Below, one piece after another: positions 4,372 through 20,634 of a stretch of DNA of 64,000 bases. Made by a program: the position numbers and the translations under genes. Under the pieces are notes generated by a model. That model saw nothing but the letters and a program-made list of their open reading frames with translations. It ran no database searches and was not told where the DNA came from. Location: NCBI GenBank assembly GCA_041393415.1, contig JAWKKE010000001.1, forward strand, positions 778,363 through 842,362, read 5' to 3'. Source of the stretch: Thermoleophilia bacterium (GTDB lineage Bacteria > Actinomycetota > Thermoleophilia > UBA2241). Position 1 is the first letter of the stretch, and every line of letters begins with the position of its first letter.

Positions 4372-4539
4372 GAGCGCCTCGCTTTCCTACTTCGTGACTG
4401 AACTACCTGCCTCCTTAAGAGAGGGGACCAGGTAGGGAGTTGTCGTCTCGCCGGCGTTCCTCTTCTTGTGTGGTTCCAAGAGAGCGTCTGGTGAGCTCTC
4501 AAACACCAGGGCCTCGAACTACCTGCCTGGGGGTCATCC
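4372..4539. promoter_or_regulatory. intergenic region with two ~40-nt direct repeats, each able to form a hairpin (gaactacctgcct...aggtagg(g/t)agtt)
   Basis: Read directly: cgtgactgaactacctgcctccttaagagaggggaccaggtagggagttg and cgaactacctgcctgggggtcatccttaagaggtaggtagttgc, between the replication ATPase gene and the methylase gene. Confidence 0.45.
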
Positions 4540-6033
4540 TTAAGAGGTAGGTAGTTGCGTGGCATCGCCACGCCTCCAGTAGCCGTAGGCGCGGCTCGAA
4601 GCCGAGCCGGCACCCTTGGCGCGCTCACAGGGTCGCTCGGGATCGTTCTCGTCGCAGAGCTCACGCAGCACGTCTTGTGCCTTGGGCTTGCCGATGCCGT
4701 TCGCCTGACAATGCTCGATGATCGTCGCCTCTGTGATGGCTTCCTCCTTGGTGGCGGGAAGCAGACCGAGGAGCATTTCGCGCAGATCGCGCTCCTTCAC
4801 CGCACCGACCGATCCGACAGATCGATAGCGGCCCGCATCGTCCATCTCGATCACCCAGTCCGGCGGTTCTGCGGCAAAGACGCGGCCGGTGACGGAGAGC
4901 TGGCGGCGACGCGGATGTGCATCGCCCTTCAGGTGCAGGAGCACGTCAAAGCCGCCGGCCAGCGCCGAACTGCCGCGTCCTGCCTCGCTGATCGAGCCAC
5001 CGCCTTTGCGGGCGTGACGCAGAACGAGCACCGCAAGGCCGCAGCCCGTCAGTCGCTCGATCACCCGTAGCGTCGCCAGCGCCACGCCGGCGTCGTTCTC
5101 CTCGTCGCCCTCGATGCCGGCCCAGAGGGAGAGGTTGTCGACGACGACGAGGTTGAGTCCGCGTTCTCTCGCGCAGCGCTCAACCACCTTGCCAATCTCC
5201 GGCCAGCTGAGAGCGAGCGCGTCGCGGTGGAAGAGCGTGCAGAAGCGCTCCTCACCGAGCAGGCCGGCGCGAGCGACTTGGGGCACGAACGAGTGCGGCG
5301 ACTGCTCGCTGAGGTAGAGGACGCCGCTCTTTCTGGTTGTTCTTCCGCACCACGGCTCGCCGTTGATCACGTCGCGCGCGATCGCCAGCGCCATGGTGGT
5401 CTTGCCCCGTTTGACCTCAGCCACGAGGTCCGTGCTGCAGCCGACGTAGAGCAGACCTTCGCAGAGCGCGACGGGTGTCTCAAGTTGCAGACCGGCGAGT
5501 GCAGCGCCGTCGTAGAGGGAGACGCCCACATGGTCGGCAATGTCGGTCTCGAGGAGGTCGCTGGACTCGGCCAGCAGACCCTGCAACTGCGTTCGGCTGT
5601 CGGCATCGAGGCGTCCTTGGGCAGACATGCCGATCTTCTCCAACGCGGCCCGCAGGTGCCGCTCACGCGCAAGTTCTTTGACGCGCGCGATGTAGCTGCG
5701 CACATGCGTCGCCGCCGGCGTCGTCTCGGCCAACACGCAGAGGTAGTCGCGCCCCGGAATGAGGTTGATGGCGCCGCTGCGCTCAAGCTCGGCCGCCACC
5801 GTGAGATGATCGACGTCCTCACCACGAGCGACGAGACGGCAGACGCCCGTATGGATCGCGCGGTGCGCCGCAGAGGCAAAGGCCGCTGTCTCGACCTCCT
5901 CGGCAACCACACGAGCCGCCACATCGTTCACAAGAGCGGCGCCCAAGCAGGCTTCCTCGACGCGCCGTTCGGGAAGAACGTCCGCTCGTGACGCCGCTTC
6001 CTTCGCCGTCACCGTTGCCGCGCCGCTGTTCAT
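4540..6033 (-). CDS. replication protein: DnaB-helicase N-terminal domain fused to RecA-like (AAA_25/RepA-type) ATPase
   Basis: N-terminal DnaB_N-like region (EACLGAALVNDVAARVV...HRAIHTGVCRLVARGEDVDHLTVAAELERSGAINLIPGRDYL). Walker A VKRGKTT. Walker B-like LVVVDNLSLW. Confidence 0.7.
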   Translation of the reverse strand: MNSGAATVTAKEAASRADVLPERRVEEACLGAALVNDVAARVVAEEVETAAFASAAHRAIHTGVCRLVARGEDVDHLTVAAELERSGAINLIPGRDYLCVLAETTPAATHVRSYIARVKELARERHLRAALEKIGMSAQGRLDADSRTQLQGLLAESSDLLETDIADHVGVSLYDGAALAGLQLETPVALCEGLLYVGCSTDLVAEVKRGKTTMALAIARDVINGEPWCGRTTRKSGVLYLSEQSPHSFVPQVARAGLLGEERFCTLFHRDALALSWPEIGKVVERCARERGLNLVVVDNLSLWAGIEGDEENDAGVALATLRVIERLTGCGLAVLVLRHARKGGGSISEAGRGSSALAGGFDVLLHLKGDAHPRRRQLSVTGRVFAAEPPDWVIEMDDAGRYRSVGSVGAVKERDLREMLLGLLPATKEEAITEATIIEHCQANGIGKPKAQDVLRELCDENDPERPCERAKGAGSASSRAYGYWRRGDATQLPTS

Positions 6034-6034
6034 C

Positions 6035-6295
6035 TCACTCGTCGTCCTCGACGCCCAACATGGCGATCAGCTTCGCCGTCGGCACAAGGATGCGCTTGGA
6101 CATCCGCAGCGTCGGCAGGCTGCCGTCCCTGGCGGCCGCGTAGGCAGTGCTCCTGCCGATGCCGAGGACGATCGCCGCCTCTTCGACGGAGCAGGTTGGG
6201 CCGCGGCGCAGGCACTCGGTTTCGACACTCCGCGAGCACATCGCCGCGCTCGCGCTCTGCTTGATTCTTTCCTCGCTGTCCATGCTTGCCTTCAC
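6035..6295 (-). CDS. excisionase/MerR-like helix-turn-helix DNA-binding protein (Xis-like)
   Basis: HTH_17-like segment VEEAAIVLGIGRSTAYAAARDGSLPTLRMSKRILVP; 86 aa; divergent to the integrase operon. Confidence 0.6.
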   Translation of the reverse strand: MKASMDSEERIKQSASAAMCSRSVETECLRRGPTCSVEEAAIVLGIGRSTAYAAARDGSLPTLRMSKRILVPTAKLIAMLGVEDDE

Positions 6296-6394
6296 CCTTC
6301 GTGCCGGTTATGATGCTGTGTGCTGGACAGAACGCCTTTCAAGCGTTACGTCCAGTGGCGTGAGCCTAGCAATACCGCATTAGAAGGTTCTTAT
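6296..6394. promoter_or_regulatory. divergent promoter region between xis-like (leftward) and hypothetical-integrase (rightward) operons
   Basis: 99-nt AT-richer gap (ttatgatgctgtgtgctggacag...) between divergently oriented genes. Confidence 0.35.
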
Positions 6395-7414
6395 ATGGCA
6401 CACGAGGCGAGGGTGGAGAGCGAGGAGGACGTCTACCGCGAGCTCGGACGCGCCCTCGGCGGTGCTCCCGATGCGACCGTCTGGAAGCTGCTCCAGCACG
6501 GTCGCTGGCCGCAGGACGTGATCGGCGAAGAGGCCAGCTTCGCGGAGCTGCTCTCTGAGTACCGCACGCAGCTCGCAATCATTGCCGATCGTCAGGTGCA
6601 GCCGCGCTCGGCTACGAGAGAGCCACTCGTGGTTGGCGCTCCGTGGACGGAGGCCCTGGCGAAGATCATGGCCCTGCAGGCGGCCAAGGATCCCTACGTG
6701 GTCGCCTTTCGCAGCCAGGTCCTGGGGAACAGACTGCTCGCCCCCGAGGAGGTGAACCCCTGGATCAGAGAGCGCCTCGCGGCCTGCGGCTCCTACACGC
6801 GTCAGACGCGTCCCGACATGCTCGGTGCCGTCGTTGGCCCGCGAGCCAACGCCTGGGAGTCCGAGCTCGCCGTGCAGGCTTACGTAGAGGGCAGCGCGCC
6901 ACCACGGACAACACAGGCCGAGTCGGAGCTCGACTTCCTCGACTGCTTAGGTGACGTCTTGATCAGTTCCTACGGCTTCTACGACCCCGACTCGCTACGC
7001 CGTTTTGTCCTCAGCGGCGAGACGCCGCGGCTGGCCGCCATCCTGGCTGCCGGTCGCTACCGCGAGGGCTTCCCGCAGGCTGGCGAGACGATCGTCATGC
7101 ACGTCAGTCCGCGCTGTCCCCCAAAGCAGATGCTGGCCGCCTACAGTGAGCTCCGGCAGCGCGTGCTTCCTGAGCGCCAACGCGTGCGCCAGCCCGACGA
7201 GGACGACCTCGAGCTCGCGGTCTTCATCGCCGAGGTGAACGACGGTCGCACCTGGGAGGACGCAGCCGCCGCTTGGAACGACGCCCACGAGGAAGCGCGG
7301 CGCTACCAAGAGAAGCGCTCCTTCTCTCGTGACGCACGCGGCGCCTACCAGCGGGTCGTGGGCAGTGAGATCGAGTGGCAGGGCAAGGCACAGGCCAGGC
7401 GAGGCCACAGGTGA
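6395..7414 (+). CDS. hypothetical protein (340 aa) co-transcribed with the integrase
   Basis: ATG at 6395 preceded by agaagg. Stop TGA overlaps the integrase GTG start (GTGA). No recognisable motif. Confidence 0.5.
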   Translation: MAHEARVESEEDVYRELGRALGGAPDATVWKLLQHGRWPQDVIGEEASFAELLSEYRTQLAIIADRQVQPRSATREPLVVGAPWTEALAKIMALQAAKDPYVVAFRSQVLGNRLLAPEEVNPWIRERLAACGSYTRQTRPDMLGAVVGPRANAWESELAVQAYVEGSAPPRTTQAESELDFLDCLGDVLISSYGFYDPDSLRRFVLSGETPRLAAILAAGRYREGFPQAGETIVMHVSPRCPPKQMLAAYSELRQRVLPERQRVRQPDEDDLELAVFIAEVNDGRTWEDAAAAWNDAHEEARRYQEKRSFSRDARGAYQRVVGSEIEWQGKAQARRGHR

Positions 7415-8664
7415 GAGGCTCCGTTCGTCATCGCGGCAACGAGCGCGGCGGTTCCTGGGAGTACATCTGCGATGTCGGTCTCGCGCCCGTGCAGCGCTGC
7501 CGGGAGTGCAAGAAGAAGTACTGGGTGGAACGGCGTCCCAAGGACAGCTGCCCTTCCTGTGGCGGCGAGCTCGTCGAATCCGAAGAACGTCGTCGTCAGA
7601 CCAAGGCGGGCTTTGCGACGAAGAAAGAGTGCCTGGCGGCGATGAACAAGGTCCTGGTCGCCGTCTCGGAGCACAATTACCAAGCGCCGAGCAAAGCCAC
7701 CGTGCGCGAGTACCTGACCAAGGAGTGGCTACCGGCAATCAAGTCAACGATCCGGCCCTCGACGTTCACCTCCTACACGCAGCACGTCGAGTGTCACATC
7801 TGTCCGCACCTCGGCTCGGTGAGACTGCAACAGCTCAGTGGCAGTCAAGTGAATGCGCTCTACGCGCTGCTTGCCGAACGCGGGGGCAAGAAGGGTGGAC
7901 CGCTATCGGCGCGCACGATTCACCATGTGCATACCTGTCTGCACAAAGCCTGCAAGGATGCCGTCAGGTGGGGCCTCATCACCAAGAACCCGCTTGAGGC
8001 CGCCGACCCGCCACGGGTGAAGGGTGGTGGTGCCAAGGAGATGAAGACCTGGACGAAAGAGCAGCTGCGCGCTTTCTTGGCGTCCGTGACAAACGATCGT
8101 CTCTCCCCGCTCTGGCACACCATGGCGATGACCGGGATGCGCAGAGGAGAGGCCTTGGGGCTGCGCTGGATCGACATCGACCTTGAGAACGCACGCCTCT
8201 CGGTGCGTAGGTCACTGGTGCCCACCAACCGCGAGGTCATCGTCAGTGAACCGAAGACGGCCAAAGGCAGAAGGGTGATCGCGCTCGATGCGGCAACCGT
8301 CGAGGTGCTGAAGGCCCAGGCCGCGCGTCAACTCGAAGAGCAACACCAGTGGGGTGACGCCTGGGTCGACACCGGACTCGTGTTCACGAAGGAGAACGGC
8401 GAGGCGCTCGACCCGGAGACGATCACGCGCTGGTTCCGGGTCGCCGTCAAGAACGCGATGCTGCCGGAGATCAGGCTGCACGACCTGCGGCACACGCACG
8501 CGACGCTGGCGCTGCAGGCCGGCATCCATCCCAAGGTGGTCTCAGAGCGTCTGGGGCACGCGACGGTGTCGATCACGCTGGATACCTACTCGCACGCCAT
8601 TCCGGCGATGCAGGAAGAGGCGGCAGCGATGATCGCAGCGCTCGTGCTGAACGGCGCCGCCTAG
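7411..8664 (+). CDS. int: tyrosine site-specific recombinase (phage integrase) with N-terminal CxxC...CxxC zinc-ribbon insertion
   Basis: C-terminal catalytic motifs HDLRHTHAT (HxxR) and LGHATVSITLDTYSH (Tyr nucleophile), plus the R in MRRGEALGLRW. N-terminal QRCRECKKKYW...DSCPSCGG four-Cys cluster. GTG start at 7411 overlaps the upstream stop. Confidence 0.85.
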   Translation: MRGSVRHRGNERGGSWEYICDVGLAPVQRCRECKKKYWVERRPKDSCPSCGGELVESEERRRQTKAGFATKKECLAAMNKVLVAVSEHNYQAPSKATVREYLTKEWLPAIKSTIRPSTFTSYTQHVECHICPHLGSVRLQQLSGSQVNALYALLAERGGKKGGPLSARTIHHVHTCLHKACKDAVRWGLITKNPLEAADPPRVKGGGAKEMKTWTKEQLRAFLASVTNDRLSPLWHTMAMTGMRRGEALGLRWIDIDLENARLSVRRSLVPTNREVIVSEPKTAKGRRVIALDAATVEVLKAQAARQLEEQHQWGDAWVDTGLVFTKENGEALDPETITRWFRVAVKNAMLPEIRLHDLRHTHATLALQAGIHPKVVSERLGHATVSITLDTYSHAIPAMQEEAAAMIAALVLNGAA

Positions 8665-8687
8665 CCGAATCGCCAACCACGCAAAGT

Positions 8688-9929
8688 CTACATCTCTTCC
8701 GCGGCCTCACACGCCAATCTCACGCTGGCTTCGTGAAATGCCTCGCATGTCTGCTGCGTCACCCTGTTCAGGATTCGCAGCACGATGATCGTGTCCAGAG
8801 TCGGCGCAACCGCGCCGAGAGCAGAACTGACTTGCGTCAGAGAGATACCGGCATTCTGGCCCGGATCAGACATCCCGGCATTGCTGGGGCCAGCCAGAAG
8901 CAGGTCGGTGTCGCCGAGCAACCCGAGCTTGAACAAGACTCCCTTCGGGTTCGCATGGACGTTGTGACTGGCGAGCCTATAGTGAGCCCTCATGTGGTCA
9001 ATGCCTGCGTCCTCCCGAATATCCCGGAACTTCGGGTCCTTCAGACCAAGCGCATCGGCTGCCCACCCGTATTGCCGGTCGAAATCCGCACCGTACTTCG
9101 CGACCAGTTCAGCGTGCCGTCGACGAGTCGCAGCCAGTTCCGCATCACTCATACGCTCGTAGCCAAGCTTCTCGCGACACTCATCGTAGTCCCGCACCGC
9201 TCTTGCCGACTCAACGGCTTCGTGGTCAACGTATCTCTGAGCGACCAGCTCTCCGTGATGTCGGAGGAACAGCGCCACCGCGGCAATCTCGTGAAGGGTA
9301 CGCCAGCGCGCCATCGCACCATCCGAGAACCCCTCAGCGAGCAGGCAGATGATCTCGTCTGTCACCTGGCACGCCCTCGCGTGCAGTCGCAACAGCACGT
9401 CGCAAAGCACGGGGGATTCCGTCTGCTCACAGCGTCTCAGAGTCGTGTTGACGAGATCGCCAAACTCACGCGACACGGTGAGCAGCATGCGCAGTAGGTC
9501 AATGCCTTCACCCCATCGCCCGTGGAGCCGATCGCGGAAGCCGTCGCGCTCCAGCAGTTGCCTCTCCTGCTCCAGCGCCCAACTCTCGCGAAGACTGGCG
9601 AGGATCAGCTCGGACGCTTTGTCGCCGACATCGTCGACGATTGCTGATACACCCTCTGTCATGAACGTGTCGAGGCGACCATCGATCCGCGCCAGATCAG
9701 CTGCAGTGATCCGTACCTCCGTACGCTCGTTTCCCATACCGTCGTCGAATGAGAACGAGTCGCCTGCGTCGTCCTTCAGATGGCGAAAGAGATTCTCACG
9801 CTCCTCTTCCCCGACGGGAATGCCCATCGCAGCGAGCTTCTCAGTGATGACGGTCGCTGCGATTCTGTAGGGAACATCCGCAAGTTCGTGGTCGAGAATG
9901 CGCTGATACGATCCCTCGTATTCCCACAC
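8688..9929 (-). CDS. hypothetical cargo protein (~414 aa); start uncertain, longest ORF extends to 10025
   Basis: Long ORF between the integrase and tRNA. The internal GTG at 9929 follows a GGGAGGGG RBS; the longest start is a TTG at 10025. No recognisable catalytic motif. Confidence 0.4.
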   Translation of the reverse strand: MWEYEGSYQRILDHELADVPYRIAATVITEKLAAMGIPVGEEERENLFRHLKDDAGDSFSFDDGMGNERTEVRITAADLARIDGRLDTFMTEGVSAIVDDVGDKASELILASLRESWALEQERQLLERDGFRDRLHGRWGEGIDLLRMLLTVSREFGDLVNTTLRRCEQTESPVLCDVLLRLHARACQVTDEIICLLAEGFSDGAMARWRTLHEIAAVALFLRHHGELVAQRYVDHEAVESARAVRDYDECREKLGYERMSDAELAATRRRHAELVAKYGADFDRQYGWAADALGLKDPKFRDIREDAGIDHMRAHYRLASHNVHANPKGVLFKLGLLGDTDLLLAGPSNAGMSDPGQNAGISLTQVSSALGAVAPTLDTIIVLRILNRVTQQTCEAFHEASVRLACEAAEEM

Positions 9930-10425
9930 AGTGACCCCTCCCGTCCGGCCGAGGCATCTCCCCGGCACGATGGCTGCTTGCCCCGACGCACGCAGGACAG
10001 CTCGCAGCGGCGTTCCGCTCCGCAACGAGCTTGACGCCCGGACTCATCATCCACGAACACGATCTTGTCCGAAGAGGTGTACAGAGCCATCGCCAAGGTT
10101 CAGCGATTACGCTAGCATTCCCCCGTGCAGGACCGAACGGTACCCAGCGTGGTGGAGGGCACCGCCGATGTCACCGTCATATGTATCTCGCGACACCTCA
10201 ACCTCGTTGGCGACAAACAAGACTGTTCCATGAAGTACTGCACGCGGGTCGAACGCCACGAGCGTCGATCCTGGCCGTCCAACGATCACGCAGACTGCGA
10301 GCGCCTGGCGCGCCAACCCGCCATCGCTGCCAAAGCCAACGAGGGCGCGACCATTCCACAACCCACCTCACCAGCTAGGCCGCGACAGGCGATCCGCCAA
10401 CTTGGAGAGAGTCATGCGTACCTAG

Positions 10426-11775
10426 CTAGACCCACAGATCGCCCAGGAGGTCCCCTAGTTTGATCGGACGGGATCCGTACTTGAGAATCCCCAGTCCCTC
10501 AAGCCGAATGCCGACAACAGCTCGCGAAACATCGAAGAGCCCGGCCAGTCGTCGTAGCGTGACGTGCAGGTTCTGTACATTGCATGGCTGACTGTCTACG
10601 AACAGAGCGCCGAAACCCTTGTCCACAATGCCGAGCTCTCCAGCTACAGTAGCGAAGGCGCTCAGAAACGCTTCCTGTGGCAGCAACAGGCATCCCGCGA
10701 GGTAGTTGGCCTGCCACTCCAGCCGGCCTACTTCAGAGGCTTGCGTCCAGGTATCTCCATCTAGCCCAAAGTCGCTTTCTTGACAGAACTCGCGCCGCAT
10801 GTACTCCCCGTGTTTCAGGATGTGGTGGGACAACTCGTGGGCGAGGGTGAACCTCCATCTCACGGGCGACTGGTTCCGCACGAATAGCTCTATACGCAGC
10901 GGATCGAATGAGATGGCACCTAGGACCTCCTCTGAGAATGCCTCTCTGCCGCCGGCTGGGTGCTCAACAAGCTCCAAGCCGCTTCGTCGGTTCTCGAGTT
11001 CAACTACTCTCTTGAGCGACGTTGGGCCGCTCTGGTACCCCGTCCGTTCGAGAGTCTCTCTGGCCCGGTCCTCGATGTAATCGGTCGGAAGGAAGGGGAC
11101 AATACTGCTGCCTCGGGATTCCCTGTTCTGCAGTCGCGCGACTTCTTGCTGTTGAAGGCCAGAACGCGACACAACATCTCCGATAATCTTTCGCAGAGAG
11201 TTAGTCGCTATTTCTGGAGTAAGGCAGTACAGATCGTAGAAATGACTTCGGAATGATGCTTGCGTAATGGCAGACTCTATTCGCTCTCTACTATCGATCT
11301 CTTTCGAAGTCGAGATTGTGGATGCCGAACGCCTGAGTTCCCATTTGAACTGATCGCCGTCGAAGTACCTCAGAACAGCGAGTTTCTTTGATTTGGCGAA
11401 TGCGAGGGCGCCAGACTGAAGGGCAGTTCGTGTAGCAAGTATGCCTTTGACGTTCGCACCTGTTACTTGATCGATCTTCTGGTAGAACTCCTCAACATCG
11501 TCAACCGGAACCAAGTGACTGTAGTTCTTGCACTCGACCAGAACGACCAGCGAAGGTTCCTCCTCTCCCGGAAGGCTGATCTCCACGGCAATATCAAAGA
11601 CGATGTCGCTGCCCCGCGCAGCGGAGTGGTAGGGCTGCTTGCGAAGCACTCTGCAACACTCTGCCTTCGCCCAGAATCTCCCGGCCTCTATCTCGCCTTC
11701 CAAGAGCTCCGCGATCCTGACCTCCAGCGCGTCGCCGCGCGCTACGGTGCTCTGTTGGCCCTTTGTCTTGCTCAC
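10426..11775 (-). CDS. fusion protein: N-terminal Mrr-like PD-(D/E)xK restriction-endonuclease domain plus C-terminal ImmA/IrrE-family HExxH metallopeptidase domain
   Basis: N-terminal GSDIVFDIAV...LVVLVECKNY (D...E-x-K of the Mrr catalytic domain). C-terminal HELSHHILKH (HExxH) in a DUF955-like context. GTG start at 11775 after an AGGAG RBS; the longest ORF reaches 11811. Confidence 0.6.
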   Translation of the reverse strand: MSKTKGQQSTVARGDALEVRIAELLEGEIEAGRFWAKAECCRVLRKQPYHSAARGSDIVFDIAVEISLPGEEEPSLVVLVECKNYSHLVPVDDVEEFYQKIDQVTGANVKGILATRTALQSGALAFAKSKKLAVLRYFDGDQFKWELRRSASTISTSKEIDSRERIESAITQASFRSHFYDLYCLTPEIATNSLRKIIGDVVSRSGLQQQEVARLQNRESRGSSIVPFLPTDYIEDRARETLERTGYQSGPTSLKRVVELENRRSGLELVEHPAGGREAFSEEVLGAISFDPLRIELFVRNQSPVRWRFTLAHELSHHILKHGEYMRREFCQESDFGLDGDTWTQASEVGRLEWQANYLAGCLLLPQEAFLSAFATVAGELGIVDKGFGALFVDSQPCNVQNLHVTLRRLAGLFDVSRAVVGIRLEGLGILKYGSRPIKLGDLLGDLWV

Positions 11776-12131
11776 TGTGGCTGCTCCTAGCGAGGGCCGT
11801 GGACGGCGCATGACTGGTCTGCTGCCGTCCGCACAGTCCGTCTACCGCGACTCGACTCTTCTGCATGTGACCCTACCACCAGCCCGACAGGCATCCATGC
11901 AGACTGGACGTGCACGCGAGGAGGCCCGGCAGTCGTGCCTGCGAGGGTGGGTCGCGCCTCCTGCCGCCACAGCCACTGCATGCCGCCTTGTGCGCGACTG
12001 TAGCGATGCCTCTCGTCAGCAGAATGTCGGCCGAATGTCGGCGTGGGCCTTCCGCGGCGCCCAAACGAGGCCACCGACGCCGAACGCCCCAGCACGGCGG
12101 CGCCCGGTGCAGCACCAAACAGCAGGGTGGG

Positions 12132-12207
12132 TGGTGCCCCCGGCTGGAATCGAACCAGCGACACCAGGTTTAGGAAACCTGTGCTCTATCCACTGAGCTA
12201 CGAGGGC
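12132..12207 (-). tRNA. tRNA-Arg (anticodon CCT), 76 nt, CCA encoded
   Basis: Reverse complement reads GCCCTCGTAGCTCAGTGGATAGAGCACAGGTTTCCTAAACCTGGTGTCGCTGGTTCGATTCCAGCCGGGGGCACCA. Cloverleaf has a 7-bp acceptor stem, GTTCGATTC T-loop and anticodon loop TTCCTAA. Confidence 0.85.
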
Positions 12208-12300
12208 AAAGTGCTGATTTGCAGGGATTTGTCTCTGCGGTGGCCCCGCAAAGGGTACCACAAGTTGCTAATTGGCTGCTAAATCTGCAGGAAACGCGGC
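12169..12300. repeat. direct repeat copy A: 46-nt perfect core (12169-12214 = tRNA nt 1-39 plus 7 nt upstream) followed by ~85 nt of diverged flank
   Basis: 12169-12214 is identical to 17545-17590. 12215-12300 is ~75% identical to 17591-17670. Confidence 0.8.
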
Positions 12301-12507
12301 GATGGCTATCGCGCCCGCCACTTGAGCAGAAACGAGCTGCGCCAGCCCGGCCACACCGGCGACGGCTGCGATCACCGCAGCGGCCACGCCGACAATCAGA
12401 TCAGCGGTCCGCCAGATCTTGCAGTTGGCGAACTGCGACTCGGACGCCCAGAGGCAGGCTTCGTATGCCCGGCTCGCCTCGGCATCGAGTTCCTCGACTT
12501 GCGACAC
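12268..12507 (-). CDS. hypothetical small hydrophobic protein (79 aa)
   Basis: ORF with an Ala/Val-rich C-terminal helix; overlaps the att-like flank. Weak support. Confidence 0.2.
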   Translation of the reverse strand: MSQVEELDAEASRAYEACLWASESQFANCKIWRTADLIVGVAAAVIAAVAGVAGLAQLVSAQVAGAIAIAAFPADLAAN

Positions 12508-12623
12508 CCCGGATTCCCCCCTTCAAGCAGCGCGCCTTCTGCTGAGCGTCCGTCTGTGGCTCAGTATATGCTCGGCTCGTCCTGCGAGAACGAGGAAAGT
12601 CGCAGCCAGACGGGGGGCGTTCG

Positions 12624-13148
12624 ATGGGACTGACGGAGGACATCATTGCGACCGCATGCGCGGTGGCGACGGCAGGGACGAGCCGGATAGCGGCCTGCGC
12701 GCGAAGCGGCGCAAGCTGTGAGGGCTGGCTGAAGGTCGAGCTGTTGCACGCCCTGGACGGGCTGCCGGGGGTCGTGGTGACCCCCGAGGTGGGCAACGTC
12801 GACCTCACCGTCCGCCGGGGAGACGAGCTGGTTCTCTGCGAACTCAAGACCTTCCCGACAAACTACGGCCGCGCCGGCAAGCCGATCACCAACTTCATCG
12901 CCGGCGTAGTGCGCGACCTGGAGAAGCTCGCCTCGCGAACCGACGAGAAGACGAGAGGCCTAGCGATCTGGATGGCGTACTACATCCCCGAGCCCGTACC
13001 GCCGCAGTGGCCGGAGCACCTGGCCAAGGTGAGGCGTGCCGCCGCCGAGCAGCTCCACGTCGAGAAGATCCGGCTCGATGGCCCGCGGTTCGCGCACCTG
13101 TACGTGATGCTCGCAAGACAGACAGACAGCAGCCGGAGGCGCTCGTGA
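12624..13148 (+). CDS. island operon gene 1: small PD-(D/E)xK-like nuclease-fold protein (174 aa)
   Basis: Motif arrangement E(KVELLHAL)...VDLTV...GDELVLCELK (D-x(n)-E-x-K). Stop overlaps the next gene's GTG. Confidence 0.45.
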   Translation: MGLTEDIIATACAVATAGTSRIAACARSGASCEGWLKVELLHALDGLPGVVVTPEVGNVDLTVRRGDELVLCELKTFPTNYGRAGKPITNFIAGVVRDLEKLASRTDEKTRGLAIWMAYYIPEPVPPQWPEHLAKVRRAAAEQLHVEKIRLDGPRFAHLYVMLARQTDSSRRRS

Positions 13149-13720
13149 TCACGGCCCAGATCCTCAAGAAGCAGCGGGACCGGCTGCGGCTCGACGACGC
13201 GGATTGGCAGGCGCACCAGCAGCTGAAGGCCAAGTTCGCTGCGGCGCGCAAGCAGAGGGACCCGATGTACCTCACGGAGAGCGAGTTCTTCGAGGTCGCC
13301 CACTGGAAGCTCATCAACCAGTACGGGCGGGCGAAGCGCTACCTAGAGAGCAACTCGGCAGAGCGCATCGAGGCCATCACGAGCCGCGCCCTCAGCTTCC
13401 GCGACCCGGACCCCGACATCGAGATGGTCGGCCGCGTCACCATGCTGCGCGTCCTCCCCGGCGTCGGCATGGGCGTCGCCTCTGCGATCCTCGCCCTCTG
13501 CTTCCCGGAGCAGTACGCCCCGATCGACTTCCGCGTCTGGCGCCAGCTGTTCGACTCCGACCTGAGCATGTTCGAGGTCCCGGAGTACCGGCGGTATCTC
13601 AAGAGGCTGCGCGAGCTGGCAGACGAACTGGCATCGCTCGATCCCGCCAACGACTGGCCCATCCAGCTCGTCGACTACTTCGCCTGGGAGTACGACGCCG
13701 CGACCTCCAAGGCGGGCTGA
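13145..13720 (+). CDS. island operon gene 2: hypothetical protein with helix-hairpin-helix-like LPGVGxxxA motif (191 aa)
   Basis: GTG start overlapping the upstream stop (GTGA). LRVLPGVGMGVASAILALCF resembles the HhH of HhH-GPD DNA-binding proteins. Confidence 0.45.
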   Translation: MITAQILKKQRDRLRLDDADWQAHQQLKAKFAAARKQRDPMYLTESEFFEVAHWKLINQYGRAKRYLESNSAERIEAITSRALSFRDPDPDIEMVGRVTMLRVLPGVGMGVASAILALCFPEQYAPIDFRVWRQLFDSDLSMFEVPEYRRYLKRLRELADELASLDPANDWPIQLVDYFAWEYDAATSKAG

Positions 13721-14496
13721 TGCAGGACCGGTACTTCGGCGACATCGGCGACTTCGCCAAGTACGGGCTGCTGCGCGCGGTCACGGCGGGCCAGCCGTCG
13801 CTCAGCCTCGCGGTGCTCTGGTACCTCGTGCCCGACGAGTCCCACACGAAGGACGGCCGCCACATCGACTACCTCGAACCGACGACCACGAACCTCGCCC
13901 GCTTCCGGACCTGCGATCCTGAGCTCTACGATCGGCTCGGCGACCTCGTGCGAGGTGGCCGCCGCGACGTCTCTGCGGTCCCGGAACATCTCCTACTCCC
14001 TGAGGGAACCGTCTACCACGCCACTCCGCTGGACTTCTCCACAGTGCCCTGGGCCACACGGGCGGCGCTACGCCAGCGCTGGCTCGGAAGCGCCATCGAC
14101 ACGGGCGCCCGCGCGGACATCATGTTCCTCGACCCCGACAACGGTCTCGAGGTGGGCTGCGACGCCTGCGATGCCGCAGGACCCAAGTACGCCTACTACG
14201 ACGACCTCTCGGGAATCTCGACTGGCCAAACGCTGATCGTCTATCAGCACGCGACCCGCACCGGGACCTTCGAGGAGCAGCTCGAGGGCCGCATGAACGA
14301 CCTGGGGCGTTGCCTTCGCCGGCCGCAGGAGAACCTCCTGGCCATGCGCTGGCGGCGCGTGAGCCCACGCGCCTTCATCTTCGCCCTGGCCGATTCACAC
14401 CGTGCTGTGATCCTCCACAGGCTCGGGGCGATGCTCGCCTCACCGTGGGGCGGGAACTTCGAGCTCGTGCGTTCCGAACTCCTCCAAGAAGCCTGA
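13720..14496 (+). CDS. island operon gene 3: conserved hypothetical protein (258 aa), no fold assigned
   Basis: ATG overlapping the upstream TGA (TGATG). N-terminus MQDRYFGDIGDFAKYGLL; internal IMFLDPDNG motif. Confidence 0.5.
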   Translation: MQDRYFGDIGDFAKYGLLRAVTAGQPSLSLAVLWYLVPDESHTKDGRHIDYLEPTTTNLARFRTCDPELYDRLGDLVRGGRRDVSAVPEHLLLPEGTVYHATPLDFSTVPWATRAALRQRWLGSAIDTGARADIMFLDPDNGLEVGCDACDAAGPKYAYYDDLSGISTGQTLIVYQHATRTGTFEEQLEGRMNDLGRCLRRPQENLLAMRWRRVSPRAFIFALADSHRAVILHRLGAMLASPWGGNFELVRSELLQEA

Positions 14497-15050
14497 TGGC
14501 TGACTCGGTCTTCTCAGCACTGCCGGCACAGACCCAGAGCGTGCTGGCGCAGCTCTCAGCCGCGGTCGAGGGCGTCCAACCCACCAGTCTCAGGTCCTGG
14601 AAGATCGAGCCGACGGTGCTGTTGGGAGAGACCGCCGCCGCCGGCCTCCTGCGAGAAGTTTCGGACTGGGCCGGCACGGGTCAGGCGTGTCTGTACTACC
14701 TGGAGTGCCGCTCGGCCGACATCGACCTCGACAAGGTCGAAGAGGCCTTCGTCCACGCAAAGGCGCGGAAAGCGCCGGCGCGTGCCTACCCGCGTCTGAA
14801 CTCGCCGGGCGCTTGCCTCTACGTCGGGTGCTCCCGGTCTTTGGCGAAGCGGCTCAGGGAGCATCTCGGCTACGGCGCGGAAACGACCTACGCGCTGCAG
14901 CTGGCGCACTGGGCGATCCCGCTCTCGCTGCAGCTGGGCTTCTTCTGCGCGAAGTACACGGAGGAGACTCCTCCCGGCGTCATGCAAGCTCTCGAGGACA
15001 CGCTGTGGGGAATCCGACGGCCGATGTTCGGTCGCAGAGGCGCCAAGTAG
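14496..15050 (+). CDS. island operon gene 4: GIY-YIG-like nuclease-domain protein (184 aa)
   Basis: ACLYYLEC (GIY-like), then ACLYVGCSRSLAKRLREHLGYG (YIG plus conserved R and E/H). Start overlaps the upstream stop (TGATG). Confidence 0.45.
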   Translation: MADSVFSALPAQTQSVLAQLSAAVEGVQPTSLRSWKIEPTVLLGETAAAGLLREVSDWAGTGQACLYYLECRSADIDLDKVEEAFVHAKARKAPARAYPRLNSPGACLYVGCSRSLAKRLREHLGYGAETTYALQLAHWAIPLSLQLGFFCAKYTEETPPGVMQALEDTLWGIRRPMFGRRGAK

Positions 15051-15103
15051 AAACGGCCCGCGAGCCACCACACAAGTCAGTGCTACTGAAGGAGCAAGCG
15101 CAT

Positions 15104-16123
15104 ATGGGATACGACACGGTCGACGAGAGCCTGCAGCGGGGCGTTGCCCCGGAGTTCATAGGGCACCTCACCTCCGGGGTGCTTCTCCCGGTGCTCGAGC
15201 GGGTGCGGCACGACGACACGCTGACCCTGGAGATCAGGAACGGCTACGTCGACGTCTACTACCGCGGCGGGCGCGTGCTCGGCATCCACGGCAACGGCAG
15301 GTCAGGGCGCTTCCGCGCAGAGTTCGACATGAACTACTGCAACATCGACCCGGCCTACTGCCCGACTCTGCCAAAGGAGCCAGCGAAGAGCATCGCCTCG
15401 GAGGACGACGCCCGCGAGTGGGTCGAGGCGCTTGCCTCCTACAAGCAGGTCATGGACGTCTTCTTCTCCGACCACCCGAAACTCGAGCGCGAGTTCCAGC
15501 AGAACGTCCTGCGCGACAACAACCGCCACCTCGTCGGCGAGCGCACCGAGTACACGATCCTCGACATCGAGTACGCTCAGTCGCCGCGCGCCTTCCCCGA
15601 GAACTCGAACTTCCGCTTCGACATGGTCGGCATGCTCTGGCCGACGCCAGGCCGCAATCGGCGTAGCCGCCTCGCCACGCCCGTGCTCATCGAGATGAAG
15701 GCAGGTGACGGGGCGCTCGCCTCCCATGCGACGGGCGACGGCAAGCGACTGCCGGGCCTCGCGAAGCACGTCGACGACATCGAGGCCTTCCTCGAGCCCG
15801 AGCCGCCGGCCGCGACCTCGCCGCGGTACGACCTGCTGCGCACCGAGCTGACGACCACGCTGCGCCTGAAGCAAGAACTCGGCCTGCCGTCCATCCCCAA
15901 GACGATGAAGACGCTGGAGATCGAGCAGTGGAACGACCGACCCCAGGTGCTCTTCATCCTCGCCAACCACCAGCCCGCTTCGACGATCCTCAAGAAGGAG
16001 CTCGCCAAGCTCCCGCCCCGGGTGCACGCCGACTACTTCGTCGCGAAGGTGTCCTACGCCGGCTACTCGCTGTTCTCTGACAACATCACGCCGCTCGACG
16101 ATTTCATCGCCGAGATCGGCTGA
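15104..16123 (+). CDS. island operon gene 5: PD-(D/E)xK-like nuclease-fold protein (339 aa)
   Basis: AAGGAG RBS 8 nt upstream of the ATG. YTILDIEYA ...(~40 aa)... PVLIEMKAGDG fits a D...E-x-K core. Confidence 0.5.
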   Translation: MGYDTVDESLQRGVAPEFIGHLTSGVLLPVLERVRHDDTLTLEIRNGYVDVYYRGGRVLGIHGNGRSGRFRAEFDMNYCNIDPAYCPTLPKEPAKSIASEDDAREWVEALASYKQVMDVFFSDHPKLEREFQQNVLRDNNRHLVGERTEYTILDIEYAQSPRAFPENSNFRFDMVGMLWPTPGRNRRSRLATPVLIEMKAGDGALASHATGDGKRLPGLAKHVDDIEAFLEPEPPAATSPRYDLLRTELTTTLRLKQELGLPSIPKTMKTLEIEQWNDRPQVLFILANHQPASTILKKELAKLPPRVHADYFVAKVSYAGYSLFSDNITPLDDFIAEIG

Positions 16124-16131
16124 GAGCGCCC

Positions 16132-17427
16132 ATGCACTACGAGGTCCGACGCGGCAGCCGCGAGATCGGCGGCATGTGCATCGAGGTCGGCGCGGACGAC
16201 GGGACGCGCGTCCTGCTCGACCTCGGCATGCCCCTGGTCGCCGCCGACGGCGGCGACTTCCCCTGGGGCACGCCGCAGCGGCCGACCGAGGAGCTGATCG
16301 CCGAAGGCGTGCTCCTCGACATCCCTGGCGTCTTCCCGCACGACCCGTCGGCGCCGGGCGTCGCGGCCATCGTCCTGACGCACTCGCACCTCGACCACTG
16401 GGGCCTCGCACACCACGCCCATCCCGCGATACCCGTCTACGGCAGCGAGGGGACCGTGGCCATCCTCGAGGTCGGCCGGGTCTTCTTCCCCGACGCCAAG
16501 CTGCCCGCCGACCTGCGCGTCCTGCCGAAGGACCAGCCGCTGCACCTCGGTGGCGTGAGGCTCACCGCGATCCCGGTCGACCATGCCGCTCCAGACTCGC
16601 GCGCCCTGCTGGTCGAAGCCGACGGCCAACGGCTGCTCTACACCGGCGACCTGCGGGCCCACGGTCGGACGGCCTTCCGCTTCGAGCGCATGCTGCGCGA
16701 CGAGCGTCTGCACGGCGTCGACTGGCTGCTCTGCGAGGGGACGACCCTGGGGTCATCGGGCGGCTCGCACGGCCTGCGTAGCGAAGCCGATGTCGAGGAC
16801 GAGCTGCTCGAGCTGGCGCGGGCGACGCCGGAGTCACTCGTGGCGGTCGTCGCCTCCGGCCAGAACCTCGACCGCCTGGTCTCCTGCTTCCGAGCCGCGC
16901 GTCGTTCCGGCCGGCAGCTGGTCATCGACCCCTACCAGGCCTACGTGCTCATGAAGCTGGAGAGCCTCAGCGGCAGCATCCCCCAGTTCACCTGGGACGA
17001 CGTGCGCGTGAGCTTCGTGCCGCACCAGGTCGAGCGCCTCAAGGACGCCGGCCTGATGGACCTTGCCCGCAAGATGAGCGCGCAGGCTCGGGCGTCGAGC
17101 GATGAGCTCGCCGCCGAGCCGGGCCGCTTCCTGATGTGCCTGCGAGGCAGCAGAGGAGGGACCAAGCTCTTCGACAAGATCGGGGCGGAGAAGGTCACAC
17201 TCGTCTGGTCGCTGTGGAGCGGGTACTGGAAGCGCGACTACTGCCCGATGCGAGAGTGGGCCGCCCGGCACGGGATCGGTGCGCACTTCGTGCACAGCGG
17301 CGGCCACGCCTGGCCCGAGGACCTGGAGCGTCTGAAGCAGGCCATCGGGGCCAAGGAGTCGTACTGGGTCCACACCGACATGCAGGCCCCGCTCGAGCCC
17401 GACGGGCCGCCGACGGCAGGTTGCTAA
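16132..17427 (+). CDS. island operon gene 6: metallo-beta-lactamase-fold hydrolase, possibly beta-CASP (RNase J/CPSF-like) nuclease (431 aa)
   Basis: HxHxDH motif (IVLTHSHLDHWG) plus downstream His/Asp residues. Begins 9 nt after gene 5. Confidence 0.65.
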   Translation: MHYEVRRGSREIGGMCIEVGADDGTRVLLDLGMPLVAADGGDFPWGTPQRPTEELIAEGVLLDIPGVFPHDPSAPGVAAIVLTHSHLDHWGLAHHAHPAIPVYGSEGTVAILEVGRVFFPDAKLPADLRVLPKDQPLHLGGVRLTAIPVDHAAPDSRALLVEADGQRLLYTGDLRAHGRTAFRFERMLRDERLHGVDWLLCEGTTLGSSGGSHGLRSEADVEDELLELARATPESLVAVVASGQNLDRLVSCFRAARRSGRQLVIDPYQAYVLMKLESLSGSIPQFTWDDVRVSFVPHQVERLKDAGLMDLARKMSAQARASSDELAAEPGRFLMCLRGSRGGTKLFDKIGAEKVTLVWSLWSGYWKRDYCPMREWAARHGIGAHFVHSGGHAWPEDLERLKQAIGAKESYWVHTDMQAPLEPDGPPTAGC

Positions 17428-17462
17428 ATAGTTGCTAAATCTGCGGGAAACCGCAGGCTCAC
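17416..17462. repeat. copy of the att-flank arm-type motif (gttgctaaatagttgctaaatctgcgggaaaccgcagg), tandem gttgctaaat x2
   Basis: Resembles 12258-12297 (caagttgctaattggctgctaaatctgcaggaaacgcgg). Lies just after the stop of the MBL-fold gene. Confidence 0.5.
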
Positions 17463-17544
17463 CCTCGAACCAGCGGCACGGCGAGCGCCCCAGAATGCCC
17501 CGGTTTACCCTCGAACGGCCCCGTTCGGGCACCCTCCCAGCCCT

Positions 17545-17670
17545 TTTAGGAAACCTGTGCTCTATCCACTGAGCTACGAGGGCAAAGTGCCTATTTGCAG
17601 GGCTTTCTCTCCGCGACGACTCGCCACAGGATACCACGAGTTGGCAATTCCCTGCTGAAGCTGCCGGCGG
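17545..17670. repeat. direct repeat copy B: partial tRNA-Arg (5' half, nt 1-39) 46-nt perfect core plus diverged upstream flank
   Basis: 17545-17590 is identical to 12169-12214. The tRNA match breaks off after the anticodon loop (cccttttagg vs accaggtttagg). Confidence 0.8.
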
Positions 17671-17799
17671 CGCGAGAGGCACCTCGGCCAGGAACCCACT
17701 CACTCCCCGCTCACGACGCGGTCGCTGATCCCAGAGCAGCGCGGCGACGGTCCGCTGCTCACTCTCCTGATTGACCCAGGCTTGTCGTACCATGGGCTC

Positions 17800-19071
<1,272 letters not shown>

Positions 19072-19146
19072 CTACTTCGATAGATTCGGTGTGACTCAGG
19101 CGCTCGCCGGGTCGGTGTCACGACGTCGACCAGAGAGAGGTGCACG

Positions 19147-20634
19147 ATGCCCGCTGGCAAGCCCAACATCCTCGTCCTGTGGGGAGACGACATCGGCCTC
19201 TGGAACCTCAGCTGCAACAACCGCGGCATGATGGGCTACCAGACTCCAAACATCGACCGCCTCGCCCACGAGGGCATCGGCTTCACCGACTTCTACGGCC
19301 AGCAGAGCTGCACCGCCGGCCGCGCCGCCTTCATCACCGGTCAGAACCCGCTGCGCACGGGACTCACCAAGGTCGGTCTGCCCGGCGCCGACTTCGGCAT
19401 CCGCCCCGAGGACCCGACAATCGCTGAGCTGCTCAAACCGCTAGGCTACGCGACCGCGCAGTTCGGCAAGAACCATATCGGCGACCGGGACGAGCACCTG
19501 CCCACCAACCATGGCTTCGACGAGTTCTTCGGCAACCTCTACCACCTGAACGCTGAGGAGGAGCCGGAGCATGAGGACTACCCGAAGGACCCGGACTTCA
19601 AGAAGCGCTTCGGGCCGCGCGGTGTGATCCACAGCTGGGCGCGGCCGGACGGCACGCAGAAGATCGAGGACACGGGTCCTCTGACGCGCAAGCGCATGGA
19701 GACAATCGACGACGAGGTCACGGCGCGCACCCTCGAGTACCTCGACGAGGTCACGCAGGAGGACAAACCCTTCTTCATCTGGTGGAACTCGACGCGCATG
19801 CACTTCCGCACGCACGTGAAGCCGGAGAACCGGGGCATCAGCGGGCAGGGCGAGTACAACGACGGCATGGTCGAGCACGACCGCCACGTCGGCATGATCC
19901 TCGACAAGCTCGACGAGCTCGGCATCGCCGAGGACACGATCGTCATGTACTCGACCGACAACGGCCCCCACTACAACTCCTGGCCGGACGCAGCGATCAC
20001 ACCTTTCCGCTCGGAGAAGAACAGCAACTGGGAAGGTGCCTACCGAGTGCCGGCTTTCCTGCGTTGGCCGGCGAAGTGGCAGAGCGGGGTGACGCTCAAC
20101 GGTATCGTCGCCCATCAGGACATGCTGACGACCTTCCTCGCAGCAGCCGGCGAGCCGGACGTGGCCGCCAAGTGCCGCGCCGGTCATGATGCCGCCGGCA
20201 AGACGTTCAAGGTCATCCTCGACGGGAAGGACATGAACGCCTACTTCGCCGGCGAAACAGAGGACAGCCCGCGCGAGTCGTTCTTCTACGTCAACGACGA
20301 TGCCGAGCTCGTCGCCCTGCGCCACGGCGACTGGAAGTTCGTGTTCAAGGAGCAACGGGCGCACCAGCTCGCACTCTGGCTCGAGCCCTTCGTCGAACTG
20401 CGCGGCCCGAAGATCGTGAACCTGCGCCGCGACCCCTTCGAGCGCGCGCTTACCGATTCCAACACCTACTACGACTGGATGATCGACCGCATCTTCATGG
20501 TCGTTCCGGCACAGGCGCTGGTCGCTCGGACGATCGAGGAGTTCAGAGAGTTCCCGCCGCGCCAGAAGCCCGCATCATTCAGCCTCGACCGTGCACTCGA
20601 AAAGCTCCAGGAGTTCACCGGCAGCCAGAGCTGA
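19147..20634 (+). CDS. arylsulfatase-family sulfatase (Cys-type, variant C-T-A-G-R active-site pentapeptide)
   Basis: LVLWGDDIG...QQSCTAGRAAFITGQNP sulfatase signature region. Adjacent to the cognate maturase. Confidence 0.8.
   Translation: MPAGKPNILVLWGDDIGLWNLSCNNRGMMGYQTPNIDRLAHEGIGFTDFYGQQSCTAGRAAFITGQNPLRTGLTKVGLPGADFGIRPEDPTIAELLKPLGYATAQFGKNHIGDRDEHLPTNHGFDEFFGNLYHLNAEEEPEHEDYPKDPDFKKRFGPRGVIHSWARPDGTQKIEDTGPLTRKRMETIDDEVTARTLEYLDEVTQEDKPFFIWWNSTRMHFRTHVKPENRGISGQGEYNDGMVEHDRHVGMILDKLDELGIAEDTIVMYSTDNGPHYNSWPDAAITPFRSEKNSNWEGAYRVPAFLRWPAKWQSGVTLNGIVAHQDMLTTFLAAAGEPDVAAKCRAGHDAAGKTFKVILDGKDMNAYFAGETEDSPRESFFYVNDDAELVALRHGDWKFVFKEQRAHQLALWLEPFVELRGPKIVNLRRDPFERALTDSNTYYDWMIDRIFMVVPAQALVARTIEEFREFPPRQKPASFSLDRALEKLQEFTGSQS

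Follow-up and report, generated by a model that had tools for sequence, protein, structure and literature searches.

A six-gene array of nuclease-type proteins beside a tRNA-Arg gene of a Thermoleophilia bacterium: candidate integrative-element cargo composed of restriction-like modules

Introduction

What is the role of six tightly packed genes for nuclease-type and related proteins next to a transfer RNA (tRNA) gene in a Thermoleophilia bacterium, and do their products form one system or several? The genes, designated here g1 to g6, occupy positions 12624-17427 of the plus strand of a 64,000-nucleotide stretch of contig JAWKKE010000001.1 (assembly GCA_041393415.1), hereafter the window. An earlier note, made from the sequence alone, had described them as a translationally coupled operon that might encode a multi-nuclease complex of no recognised defence or repair system. 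We found that the array recurs as a block in other contigs, where it is cargo at the attachment-proximal end of various integrative elements, and that it is a composite of smaller modules occurring separately elsewhere. The reading that we favour, with a probability of about one half, is that the cassette is integrative-element cargo made up of two or three restriction-like defence modules.

Results

The array is an operon of constrained genes

The six open reading frames (ORFs) were recovered at the same coordinates as in the earlier note (Table 1), and the operon structure it had proposed was confirmed base by base. The first two genes overlap by GTGA (13145-13148), preceded 6 nt upstream by GGAGG, and TGATG overlaps join g2 to g3 (13718-13722) and g3 to g4 (14494-14498). 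The 53-nt gap between g4 and g5 contains a GAAGGAG ribosome-binding site, and 8 nt separate g5 from g6. A promoter and terminator scan, otherwise uninformative, detected no internal terminator above chance within the array. The GC content at third codon positions is 0.84-0.94 for the six frames, and the ratio of nonsynonymous to synonymous substitution rates (dN/dS) against the copy in another contig (L088; homologous loci are given by such numbers) is 0.12-0.33 for all six genes, with g1 at 0.12. The six genes are therefore real and constrained, under purifying selection. In the Thermoleophilia metagenome-assembled genome, g3 carries the locus tag R2826_03640.

We scanned the six proteins against Pfam, PADLOC v2.0.0, NCBIfam and PHROGs. 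The sole significant named match was that of g6, g4 matched weakly, and g1, g2, g3 and g5 have no Pfam family. Searches of PDB sequences with single g1, g2 and g4 sequences gave nothing usable, and profile searches of the PDB with the g3, g4 and g5 families returned only noise. None of the six proteins has a Walker A motif, and the ORF list, Pfam and the Walker A check gave no helicase, ATPase or protease in the cassette or adjoining it. Of the earlier statement that ATPase, helicase and methyltransferase are all missing, the first two parts hold, whereas g3 has a class I methyltransferase fold (see below).

Table 1. Features of the array, the attachment region and the block to its left, in window coordinates
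Feature	Position	Strand	Description
g1	12624-13148	+	174 aa; small putative PD-(D/E)xK protein, YraN-like
g2	13145-13720	+	191 aa, GTG start; helix-hairpin-helix protein, putative DNA-glycosylase fold (Ogg2/MutY-like)
g3	13720-14496	+	258 aa; class I (Rossmann) methyltransferase-fold protein, RlmJ the nearest solved structure
g4	14496-15050	+	184 aa; GIY-YIG superfamily nuclease-type protein, 60-aa N-terminal domain
g5	15104-16123	+	339 aa; new PD-(D/E)xK family, N-terminal YjbR/frataxin-like alpha/beta domain; partner of g6
g6	16132-17427	+	431 aa; metallo-beta-lactamase nuclease, probable beta-CASP type
Leader before g1	12549-12623	+	left edge of the conserved cassette (blastn)
tRNA-Arg(CCT)	12132-12207	-	sole complete tRNA gene (ARAGORN; Rfam tRNA, 69 bits); integration target
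Left direct repeat, attL-like	12169-12298		anticodon loop, tRNA 5' half and ~90 nt of upstream DNA
Right direct repeat, attR-like	17545-17674		39-nt perfect copy of the tRNA 5' half (17545-17583) and native upstream region
35-nt box, third copy	17417-17451		86%; overlaps the g6 stop codon (repeat search)
ParB_N and N6_N4 DNA methyltransferase	3097-4371	-	left block
DnaB_N and AAA_25 protein	4540-6033	-	left block
Tyrosine integrase	7375-8664	+	left block
DUF5677 protein	8688-10025	-	left block
Mrr-type restriction nuclease fused to IrrE/ImmA M78 protease	10426-11811	-	left block; unusual fusion

The cassette recurs as cargo of various integrative elements

The array recurs as a block in at least four other contigs, whose left flanks differ and whose proteins are 70-94% identical to those of the window. 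It is complete and in the same order in L088 and L090, and cut by contig ends in L089, L091, L009 and L010. From g1 to g6, the protein identities to L088 are 94, 90, 78, 70, 92 and 90%. By blastn, DNA homology begins exactly at 12549 in L088, L089, L090, L091 and L010. The sequence to the left of this edge varies between contigs: L088 and L089 have Nmad2/Nmad3 genes, L090 has a different gene, and L091 has a prophage-like group of ERF, Amidase_2 endolysin-type and HTH_17 genes. In L091, g1 is frameshifted and g2-g5 are intact. At the right end of L088, a copy of the tRNA 5' half again follows g6. The fixed edge, the varied left flanks and the right-end copy in L088 therefore identify the cassette as horizontally moving cargo at the attachment-proximal end of various integrative elements. 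The bins that contain close copies are assigned to Thermoleophilia, Rhodoglobus, Opitutaceae and Armatimonadota. Thus, neither of the two outcomes that the earlier note had named as grounds for abandoning its proposal was observed: the operon is present in relatives, and its genes do not dissolve into unrelated housekeeping families that never co-occur.

The copies are not uniformly diverged. The synonymous divergence (dS) from L088 is 0.43 for g3 and 0.73 for g4, as against 0.25-0.29 for g1, g2 and g5. The more diverged middle corresponds to 13720-15050 in the window and 3044-4385 in L088, with 78% and 70% protein identity compared with 90-94% elsewhere. The uneven dS therefore suggests a mosaic history, in which the middle of the cassette (g3 and g4) would have been exchanged or would diversify faster.

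The Nmad2/Nmad3 genes ("nucleotide modification associated") stand on the opposite strand directly left of the cassette (L088, 291-1750; L089, 1529-2865). They are absent from the window, and our search of the literature on Nmad2/Nmad3 found nothing related.

The array is a composite of smaller modules

The array occurs as a whole in one lineage and in parts elsewhere. We retrieved 80 g5 loci from metagenomes and a small number of further loci; 36 of these extend at least 1350 nt on both sides of g5. The g6 gene is adjacent on the same strand in 26 of these 36 loci (19 downstream, 7 upstream), and in one of the other ten a different beta-CASP gene lies at a distance of 400 nt. Upstream of g5, g4 was found in none of 66 loci and g3 in none of 48. 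When profile hidden Markov models (HMMs) were run over all fetched loci, g3 stood alone in 88 loci and g5 with g6 but without g1-g4 in 55; g5 was alone in 32, mostly on short contigs, g4-g5-g6 were found together in two (L096 and L097), and g4 was alone in two. Among the fetched loci, the full six-gene form was seen only in the window's own narrow lineage. In L096, the g6 protein is 69% identical to that of the window and its g5 partner was recognised by hhalign only (99.4% probability). In the L005 contig, a distance of more than 10 kb separates the homologues of g5 and g6 from those of g3 and g4. The array is thus a composite of smaller modules that occur separately elsewhere, and its products probably do not form a single six-protein machine. 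The "multi-nuclease complex" of the earlier note is not supported, and with g3 being methyltransferase-like, the logic shifts from nucleases alone to a putative modification enzyme together with nucleases.

Attachment-type repeats enclose the array

The tRNA-Arg(CCT) gene at the left of the array shares a 130-nt direct repeat with the right end (12169-12298 and 17545-17674, 82%), of which the first 39 nt are identical and the next ~90 nt match at 82%. The description "tRNA-flanked" is accurate for the left side; the right element is a partial, 39-nt copy that marks an attachment-site repeat. A second tRNA at the right end was considered and rejected, as ARAGORN and Rfam find one tRNA and the right element copies the 5' half only. 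An Rfam scan of 11000-19000 returned the tRNA and nothing else. A 35-nt box within the left repeat (12261-12295, upstream of the tRNA) has its further copy at the g6 stop codon, which may be an arm-type recombinase site. The region 17415-17643 is conserved in two copies in L021 (blastn).

Between the repeats (12208-17544), neither the ORF list nor Pfam gave an integrase, and to this extent the island is "integrase-less", as had been claimed; a tyrosine integrase gene nevertheless lies on the other side of the tRNA, 3.5 kb away and outside the repeats. In L021, a related Thermoleophilia contig, the repeat recurs twice more after the tRNA (copies at 402-577, 8463-8645 and 11250-11435), and the three copies indicate tandem island accretion. 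There, a C-terminal integrase fragment abuts a truncated g3 in a place equivalent to the window's. The pattern fits the decay of an element whose integrase once adjoined the tRNA.

Genomic islands integrated at tRNA genes usually repeat the 3' part of the tRNA, and cis-mobilisable elements (CIMEs) lack an integrase. The partial-tRNA direct repeats at both ends, the tandem accretion in L021 and the lack of an integrase between the repeats resemble such elements. The repeat differs from that of typical tRNA islands, as it comprises the tRNA 5' half and DNA on the promoter side, whereas it is usually the 3' half that is duplicated; no repeat of the 3' half was found in the window. A hairpin-like conserved stretch, CGAACGGCCCCGTTCG, precedes each partial repeat copy.

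Several features around the array stand apart from it. Between the left repeat and the cassette edge are 250 nt unique to the window's lineage, in which a 79-aa ORF on the minus strand (12268-12507) has a hydrophobic Ala/Val/Gly-rich stretch and a Pfam match at noise level; it may be no gene. Left of the tRNA, 3097-11811 form a mobile-element-like block (Table 1). Right of the island (17782-20634) follow a gene for a radical-SAM/SPASM protein that carries a SEC-C motif and that we take to be of the anaerobic sulfatase-maturase type, and then an arylsulfatase-like gene. Both belong to the ordinary gene complement of the chromosome and mark the native flank.

The g5-g6 pair combines a PD-(D/E)xK protein with a probable beta-CASP nuclease

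The metallo-beta-lactamase (MBL) assignment of g6, proposed earlier from its HSHLDH motif, is borne out by the match to Pfam Lactamase_B_2 (1.5e-16). All four MBL motifs are present (D30, HSHLDH at 84-89, H151 and D173), and by inspection E203, H392 (SGGHA) and H414 (VHTD) are candidates for the beta-CASP motifs A, B and C. A PDB search placed the uncharacterised EF2904 of E. faecalis first (2az4, 3.7e-13), followed by RNase J and SNM1A. With EF2904, RNase J and SNM1A/Artemis, g6 shares the HxHxDH and other MBL motifs, and it has a putative beta-CASP-like insert and candidate C-terminal His motifs. However, it misses all curated family cutoffs by far, including that of TIGR00649 for the RNase J family (1e-9, 37 bits against a cutoff of 400), and it was always paired with a g5-type PD-(D/E)xK gene, an arrangement that is not known from the EF2904, RNase J and SNM1A families.

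The g5 protein matched nothing in Pfam, PADLOC or the PDB sequences. It has a nuclease-type fold and the invariant residues D154 and E197-x-K199 of a PD-(D/E)xK core. A word search assigned ~190 clusters to its family, which is also represented by more than 360 metagenome loci. One homologous pair, in L005, has a g6 copy 83% identical to that of the window but devoid of residues ~40-160, including HxHxDH (11033-11917), next to an intact g5; it is probably a decayed pair.

The g1, g2 and g4 proteins have glycosylase- and nuclease-type features

Two PD-(D/E)xK cores had been proposed for the array. The one in g5 is confirmed by its invariant residues and nuclease-type fold, whereas g1 is a putative member, with the motif D60 ... 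E73-L-K75 and a match to NCBIfam YraN that is sub-threshold (1.4e-3, 18.6 bits, cutoff 109); it matched no PDB sequence.

The helix-hairpin-helix protein g2 could be substantiated further. It shows the hairpin, the Gly/Pro-rich loop and an Asp about 20 residues later, with LPGVG at 104-108, an invariant P121, and D128 in at least 90% of 46 sequences. The family profile matches the archaeal Ogg2 structures 3knt and 3fhf (E 2e-3) in a stretch that spans the hairpin and the catalytic Asp. The other similarities are fainter: PF21790 is matched by 3 of the 46 members, MutY of NCBIfam at 0.012, and Mig.MthI (1kea) by the single sequence at E 1.1. The likeness to the HhH-GPD glycosylases thus consists in the LPGVG hairpin and the conserved Asp 20 residues on; the differences are the marginal E-values and the position of the Ogg2 Lys nucleophile, which is occupied by a residue other than Lys. 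No similarity was detected for the N-terminal half. Mig.MthI, a mismatch glycosylase encoded beside a restriction-modification methyltransferase, provides a precedent for a glycosylase in such company. The g2 family forms 478 clusters at 50% identity.

The GIY-YIG-like nature of g4 is likewise upheld at the family level, as 31 of 37 sampled members match Pfam GIY-YIG (PF01541; best 1.1e-5) and Y67, Y109-x-G111, R119, H123 and E167 are invariant in the alignment. The g4 of the window scores 0.019 with this model, below the cutoff. The spacing between the GIY and YIG elements is unusually long (~42 residues), phrog_19050 is matched at 5e-14, and the family contains ~177 clusters.

The g3 protein has a methyltransferase-like fold with a changed catalytic motif

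The 258-aa g3 protein, which the earlier note could not place, was placed by structure prediction. The model (predicted local distance difference test score, pLDDT, 92) has a class I methyltransferase fold. RlmJ was the sole Foldseek match below E 1e-3, with a TM score of 0.40 and 7-10% identity, and spermidine synthases came next in both structure searches. RlmJ has an N-terminal tail and a helical insertion, and its Y4, H6, K18 and D164 are essential (PMC3814359). The g3 family has a conserved N-terminal tail, MQxRYxGDxGDFxKYGLL (Q2, R4, Y5, D8, G10, D11, F12 and K14), placed similarly to that of RlmJ in the model. Both proteins share the Rossmann methyltransferase fold, the N-terminal tail and helix, the helical insertion after strand 1 and an Asp-Pro after strand 4. 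The residue equivalences between g3 and RlmJ are our inference.

The two proteins differ at the motif IV position, where g3 has DPDNG (FLDPDNG, 138-142), invariant in 44 sequences, instead of DPPY. Only Asp-Pro is common to both; the Pro-Tyr that positions and stacks the adenine in RlmJ is missing. The comparison of the g3 family with E. coli RlmJ by hhalign was not significant (probability 0.4%, E 0.15), and the sole segment aligned was FLDPDNGL on LIDPPYEM. Of three testable RlmJ-family features, g3 thus lacks two, DPPY and sequence homology, and shows the third, the fold with its N-terminal motif X tail and inserted helical subdomain. With DPDNG at motif IV and no match to Pfam, NCBIfam or PADLOC models, DNA methyltransferase models included, g3 is no recognised DNA methyltransferase; it has a methyltransferase-like fold with a changed catalytic motif. 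DPDNG is closer to the amine-binding acidic motif of aminopropyl transferases than to DPPY. The genomic context of g3 is mobile and defence-like, unlike the ribosome-biogenesis role of RlmJ.

With more than 1100 clusters at 90% identity, the g3 family is large. Relatives are found in more than 500 bacterial and archaeal species representatives, mostly Chloroflexota, and also in Methanosarcinales, Planctomycetota, Bacillota and others. Among the fetched loci, the profile HMMs never found g2 near g3 relatives outside the window's lineage. In some Dehalococcoidia, g3 is located between tpiA and miaA.

Seventeen to 23 of 71 g3 loci, mostly of Dehalococcoidia (L003 and L004, for example), have a recurrent set of neighbours, in which the g3 homologue is often 4 nt downstream of a dCTP-deaminase-like gene. 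The product of the latter bears a C-terminal transmembrane tail; a short adenylosuccinate-synthetase-like gene is nearby, an AAA_18 kinase gene often follows, and in L004 the group sits among Mrr, resolvase and insertion sequence genes. This association may represent a separate, nucleotide-centred module. We rejected these PurA-like and DCD-like neighbours as part of a cassette pathway, since they are absent here and concentrated in Dehalococcoidia.

Homologues are found among defence genes

Homologues of the array often have neighbours of defence type. The g5-g6 pair of L006 lies near AbiE, HNH and NACHT genes, and that of L007 near SIR2, type I restriction-modification, GmrSD and TIR genes. 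L096 contains a DISARM-like helicase, MZB and PLD genes. The solitary g4 of L094 belongs to an integrase/Rep island, where genes for HNH, methyltransferase, OLD-like ATPase and type III res proteins adjoin it. In L099, a viral-type contig, the g3 homologue adjoins a Macro-domain gene that comes after McrBC and Eco57I-like genes. A one-pass PADLOC scan of 115 neighbours of 19 g5-g6 pairs returned mads, type II and type III methyltransferases, DRT and AriA as well as ordinary genes. Among 72,556 plasmids, tblastn found no match for g5 and three distant, solitary matches for g3, annotated as "hypothetical protein" and with uninformative neighbours.

Three loci have ADP-ribose-related genes: the Macro-domain gene of L099 overlaps the g3 homologue by 4 nt (8982-10723), an ADP-ribosylglycohydrolase gene overlaps the end of the g6 homologue in L096 (9765-12064), and a microbial PARG gene comes after a g5-like gene in L104 (9923-12741). 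ADP-ribosylated nucleic acid may be a shared theme, or the genes may have come together by coincidence in defence islands.

Discussion

Relation to known systems

The absence of a named defence system noted earlier was reproduced: PADLOC v2.0.0 had no match for g1, g2, g3, g5 and g6, and g4 matched at noise level (0.069). We compared the array with the nearest analogies and class it with restriction-like nuclease modules on mobile elements.

Restriction-modification operons are compact and borne by mobile elements, combine a methyltransferase-fold gene with PD-(D/E)xK or GIY-YIG nucleases and sit in defence islands. The cassette resembles them, and type IV systems, in being a compact mobile operon whose homologues have a defence-island setting, and in that g3 and g4, the putative modification/nuclease pair, diverge faster than their neighbours. 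On the other hand, g3 has DPDNG in place of (D/N/S)PP(Y/F) and matches no methyltransferase model, its family is mostly solitary, and such operons do not normally contain a glycosylase-fold protein or a beta-CASP nuclease. The nearest analogy for g2-g3-g4 would be a restriction-modification operon with a companion glycosylase.

For g5-g6, the nearest analogy would be the pairing of an MBL nuclease with HamA in HamMAB. HamM is a ComEC-like MBL protein encoded upstream of a protease-HamA fusion and requires the HamB helicase; nuclease-protease modules are found in Hachiman, AVAST, Lamassu and DRT (Tuck et al. 2025, PMC12799240). In both cases, an MBL-fold nuclease gene lies next to that of a PD-(D/E)xK protein, of HamA type in HamMAB and there in an anti-phage setting. 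However, HamM is ComEC-like and g6 probably of beta-CASP type, the cassette has neither protease nor helicase, and the similarity of g5 to HamA is weak, with no sequence-level match and no match to DUF1837. The HamM/protease study was the only work on beta-CASP/MBL pairs in defence that our literature search found, and it concerns a different MBL clade.

A mobile cassette of restriction-like modules

According to the reading that we favour, 12549-17544 would be the cargo of an element that uses the anticodon loop and 5' half of tRNA-Arg(CCT) as its insertion site, is bounded by attachment-type repeats and has lost its own integrase. The modules would be co-transcribed and in part translationally coupled. 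The first module would be the two-nuclease pair g5-g6, in which foreign DNA would be recognised and cut or nicked by g5, leaving a break at which degradation by g6 starts. As a methyltransferase partner is usually missing, g5-g6 might be a restriction pair that depends on modification (type IV-like) or is gated in another way. The second module, g2-g3-g4 with g1 attached, might follow restriction-modification-like logic: g3 would mark nucleic acid, and the glycosylase and nucleases would attack DNA without (or with) the mark, or repair damage that the mark causes. For all six proteins, we infer activity, substrate and defence role from fold and motif.

Several observations weigh against this reading. 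No validated defence model in PADLOC was matched. The defence contexts are anecdotal, without controlled enrichment, and hence suggestive; some g5-g6 pairs have housekeeping neighbours, such as that of the Bacillota-like L008, which lies between ComEC, HolA and VanW. All six families are also rare in viral contigs (five loci for g3, three for g5, one each for g2, with a narrowed alignment, and g4). Lacking DPPY and detectable sequence similarity to RlmJ, g3 is possibly no methyltransferase at all. As its closest structural relative is an rRNA methyltransferase and RNase J is among the closest sequence relatives of g6, both proteins may have RNA targets. Finally, the tight coupling of g1-g4 and the conservation of the block could mean that the six proteins cooperate in this lineage.

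Alternative explanations

Among the alternatives, a DNA-repair cassette for base excision or crosslinks survives best, although we consider it unlikely. Here g2 would be the glycosylase, g4, g1 and g5 AP or structure-specific nucleases, g6 an SNM1-like 5'-3' exonuclease and g3 an unrelated passenger. Such a role would agree with the match of the g2 profile to 8-oxoguanine glycosylases, with the weak matches of g6 to SNM1A and the ligase-associated exonuclease family, and with GIY-YIG being the nuclease fold of UvrC. Yet all these similarities are distant ones, genes for a ligase, a polymerase or a helicase are not linked, the cassette is located as cargo by an attachment site, and the homologues lie beside restriction, Abi, TIR, SIR2 and DISARM genes instead of repair genes.

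One integrated six-component system, in which g3 and g2 modify or excise, g4 and g1 incise, and g5 and g6 degrade, appears a little less probable still. The co-directional genes with overlaps of 1-4 nt or short gaps, the lack of an above-chance terminator inside the array, the retention of the block in at least four other contigs, and the two loci that hold g4-g5-g6 speak for cooperation. They are outweighed by the separate occurrence of the modules, including the 88 g3 loci without the others, the g5 loci without g4 or g3 (0 of 66 and 0 of 48) and the distance between the two groups in L005, as well as by the frameshifted g1 of L091 beside intact g2-g5 and the uneven dS across the block. We give the same low standing to a variant of the second module with a new restriction-modification logic, in which the DPDNG enzyme would install a non-canonical mark on DNA or nucleotides, an Ogg2-like "restriction glycosylase" and the GIY-YIG protein would read it, and g5-g6 would be a separate two-nuclease effector.

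RNA-directed functions, with g3 as an rRNA or tRNA methyltransferase and g6 as an RNase J-like enzyme in RNA processing or RNA-targeting toxicity, are distinctly improbable. The best structural match of g3 is indeed the 23S rRNA m6A methyltransferase RlmJ, the RNase J family matches g6 at 1e-9, one g6 homologue carries an RMMBL RNA-specificity domain, and the position between tpiA and miaA in some Dehalococcoidia would suit such a role. However, g3 departs from RlmJ in motif and sequence, its partners have the folds of DNA enzymes (glycosylase, GIY-YIG and PD-(D/E)xK), and the location is mobile and patchy and not universal. Least probable of all are selfish or element-maintenance genes, that is, homing-type nucleases (g4 and g1) with an addiction-type nuclease/modification set that stabilises the island: g4 does occur singly in several unrelated islands and the cassette ends an integrative element that has lost its integrase, but g4 has no recognisable DNA-binding or homing-site features, all six genes are under purifying selection, and the widespread g5-g6 pairing would be left unexplained.

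Implications

Should the modules prove to be restriction-type nucleases of an ordinary kind, the analysis would be useful mainly for annotation, by providing names for families. The g2, g3 and g5 proteins represent sizeable families that have neither a Pfam model nor a solved relative. The g5-g6 pair is a candidate for a minimal two-nuclease defence module that is not in PADLOC v2. The chemistry of g3 may be new, and its family recurs beside genes of nucleotide metabolism, ADP-ribose hydrolases and restriction.

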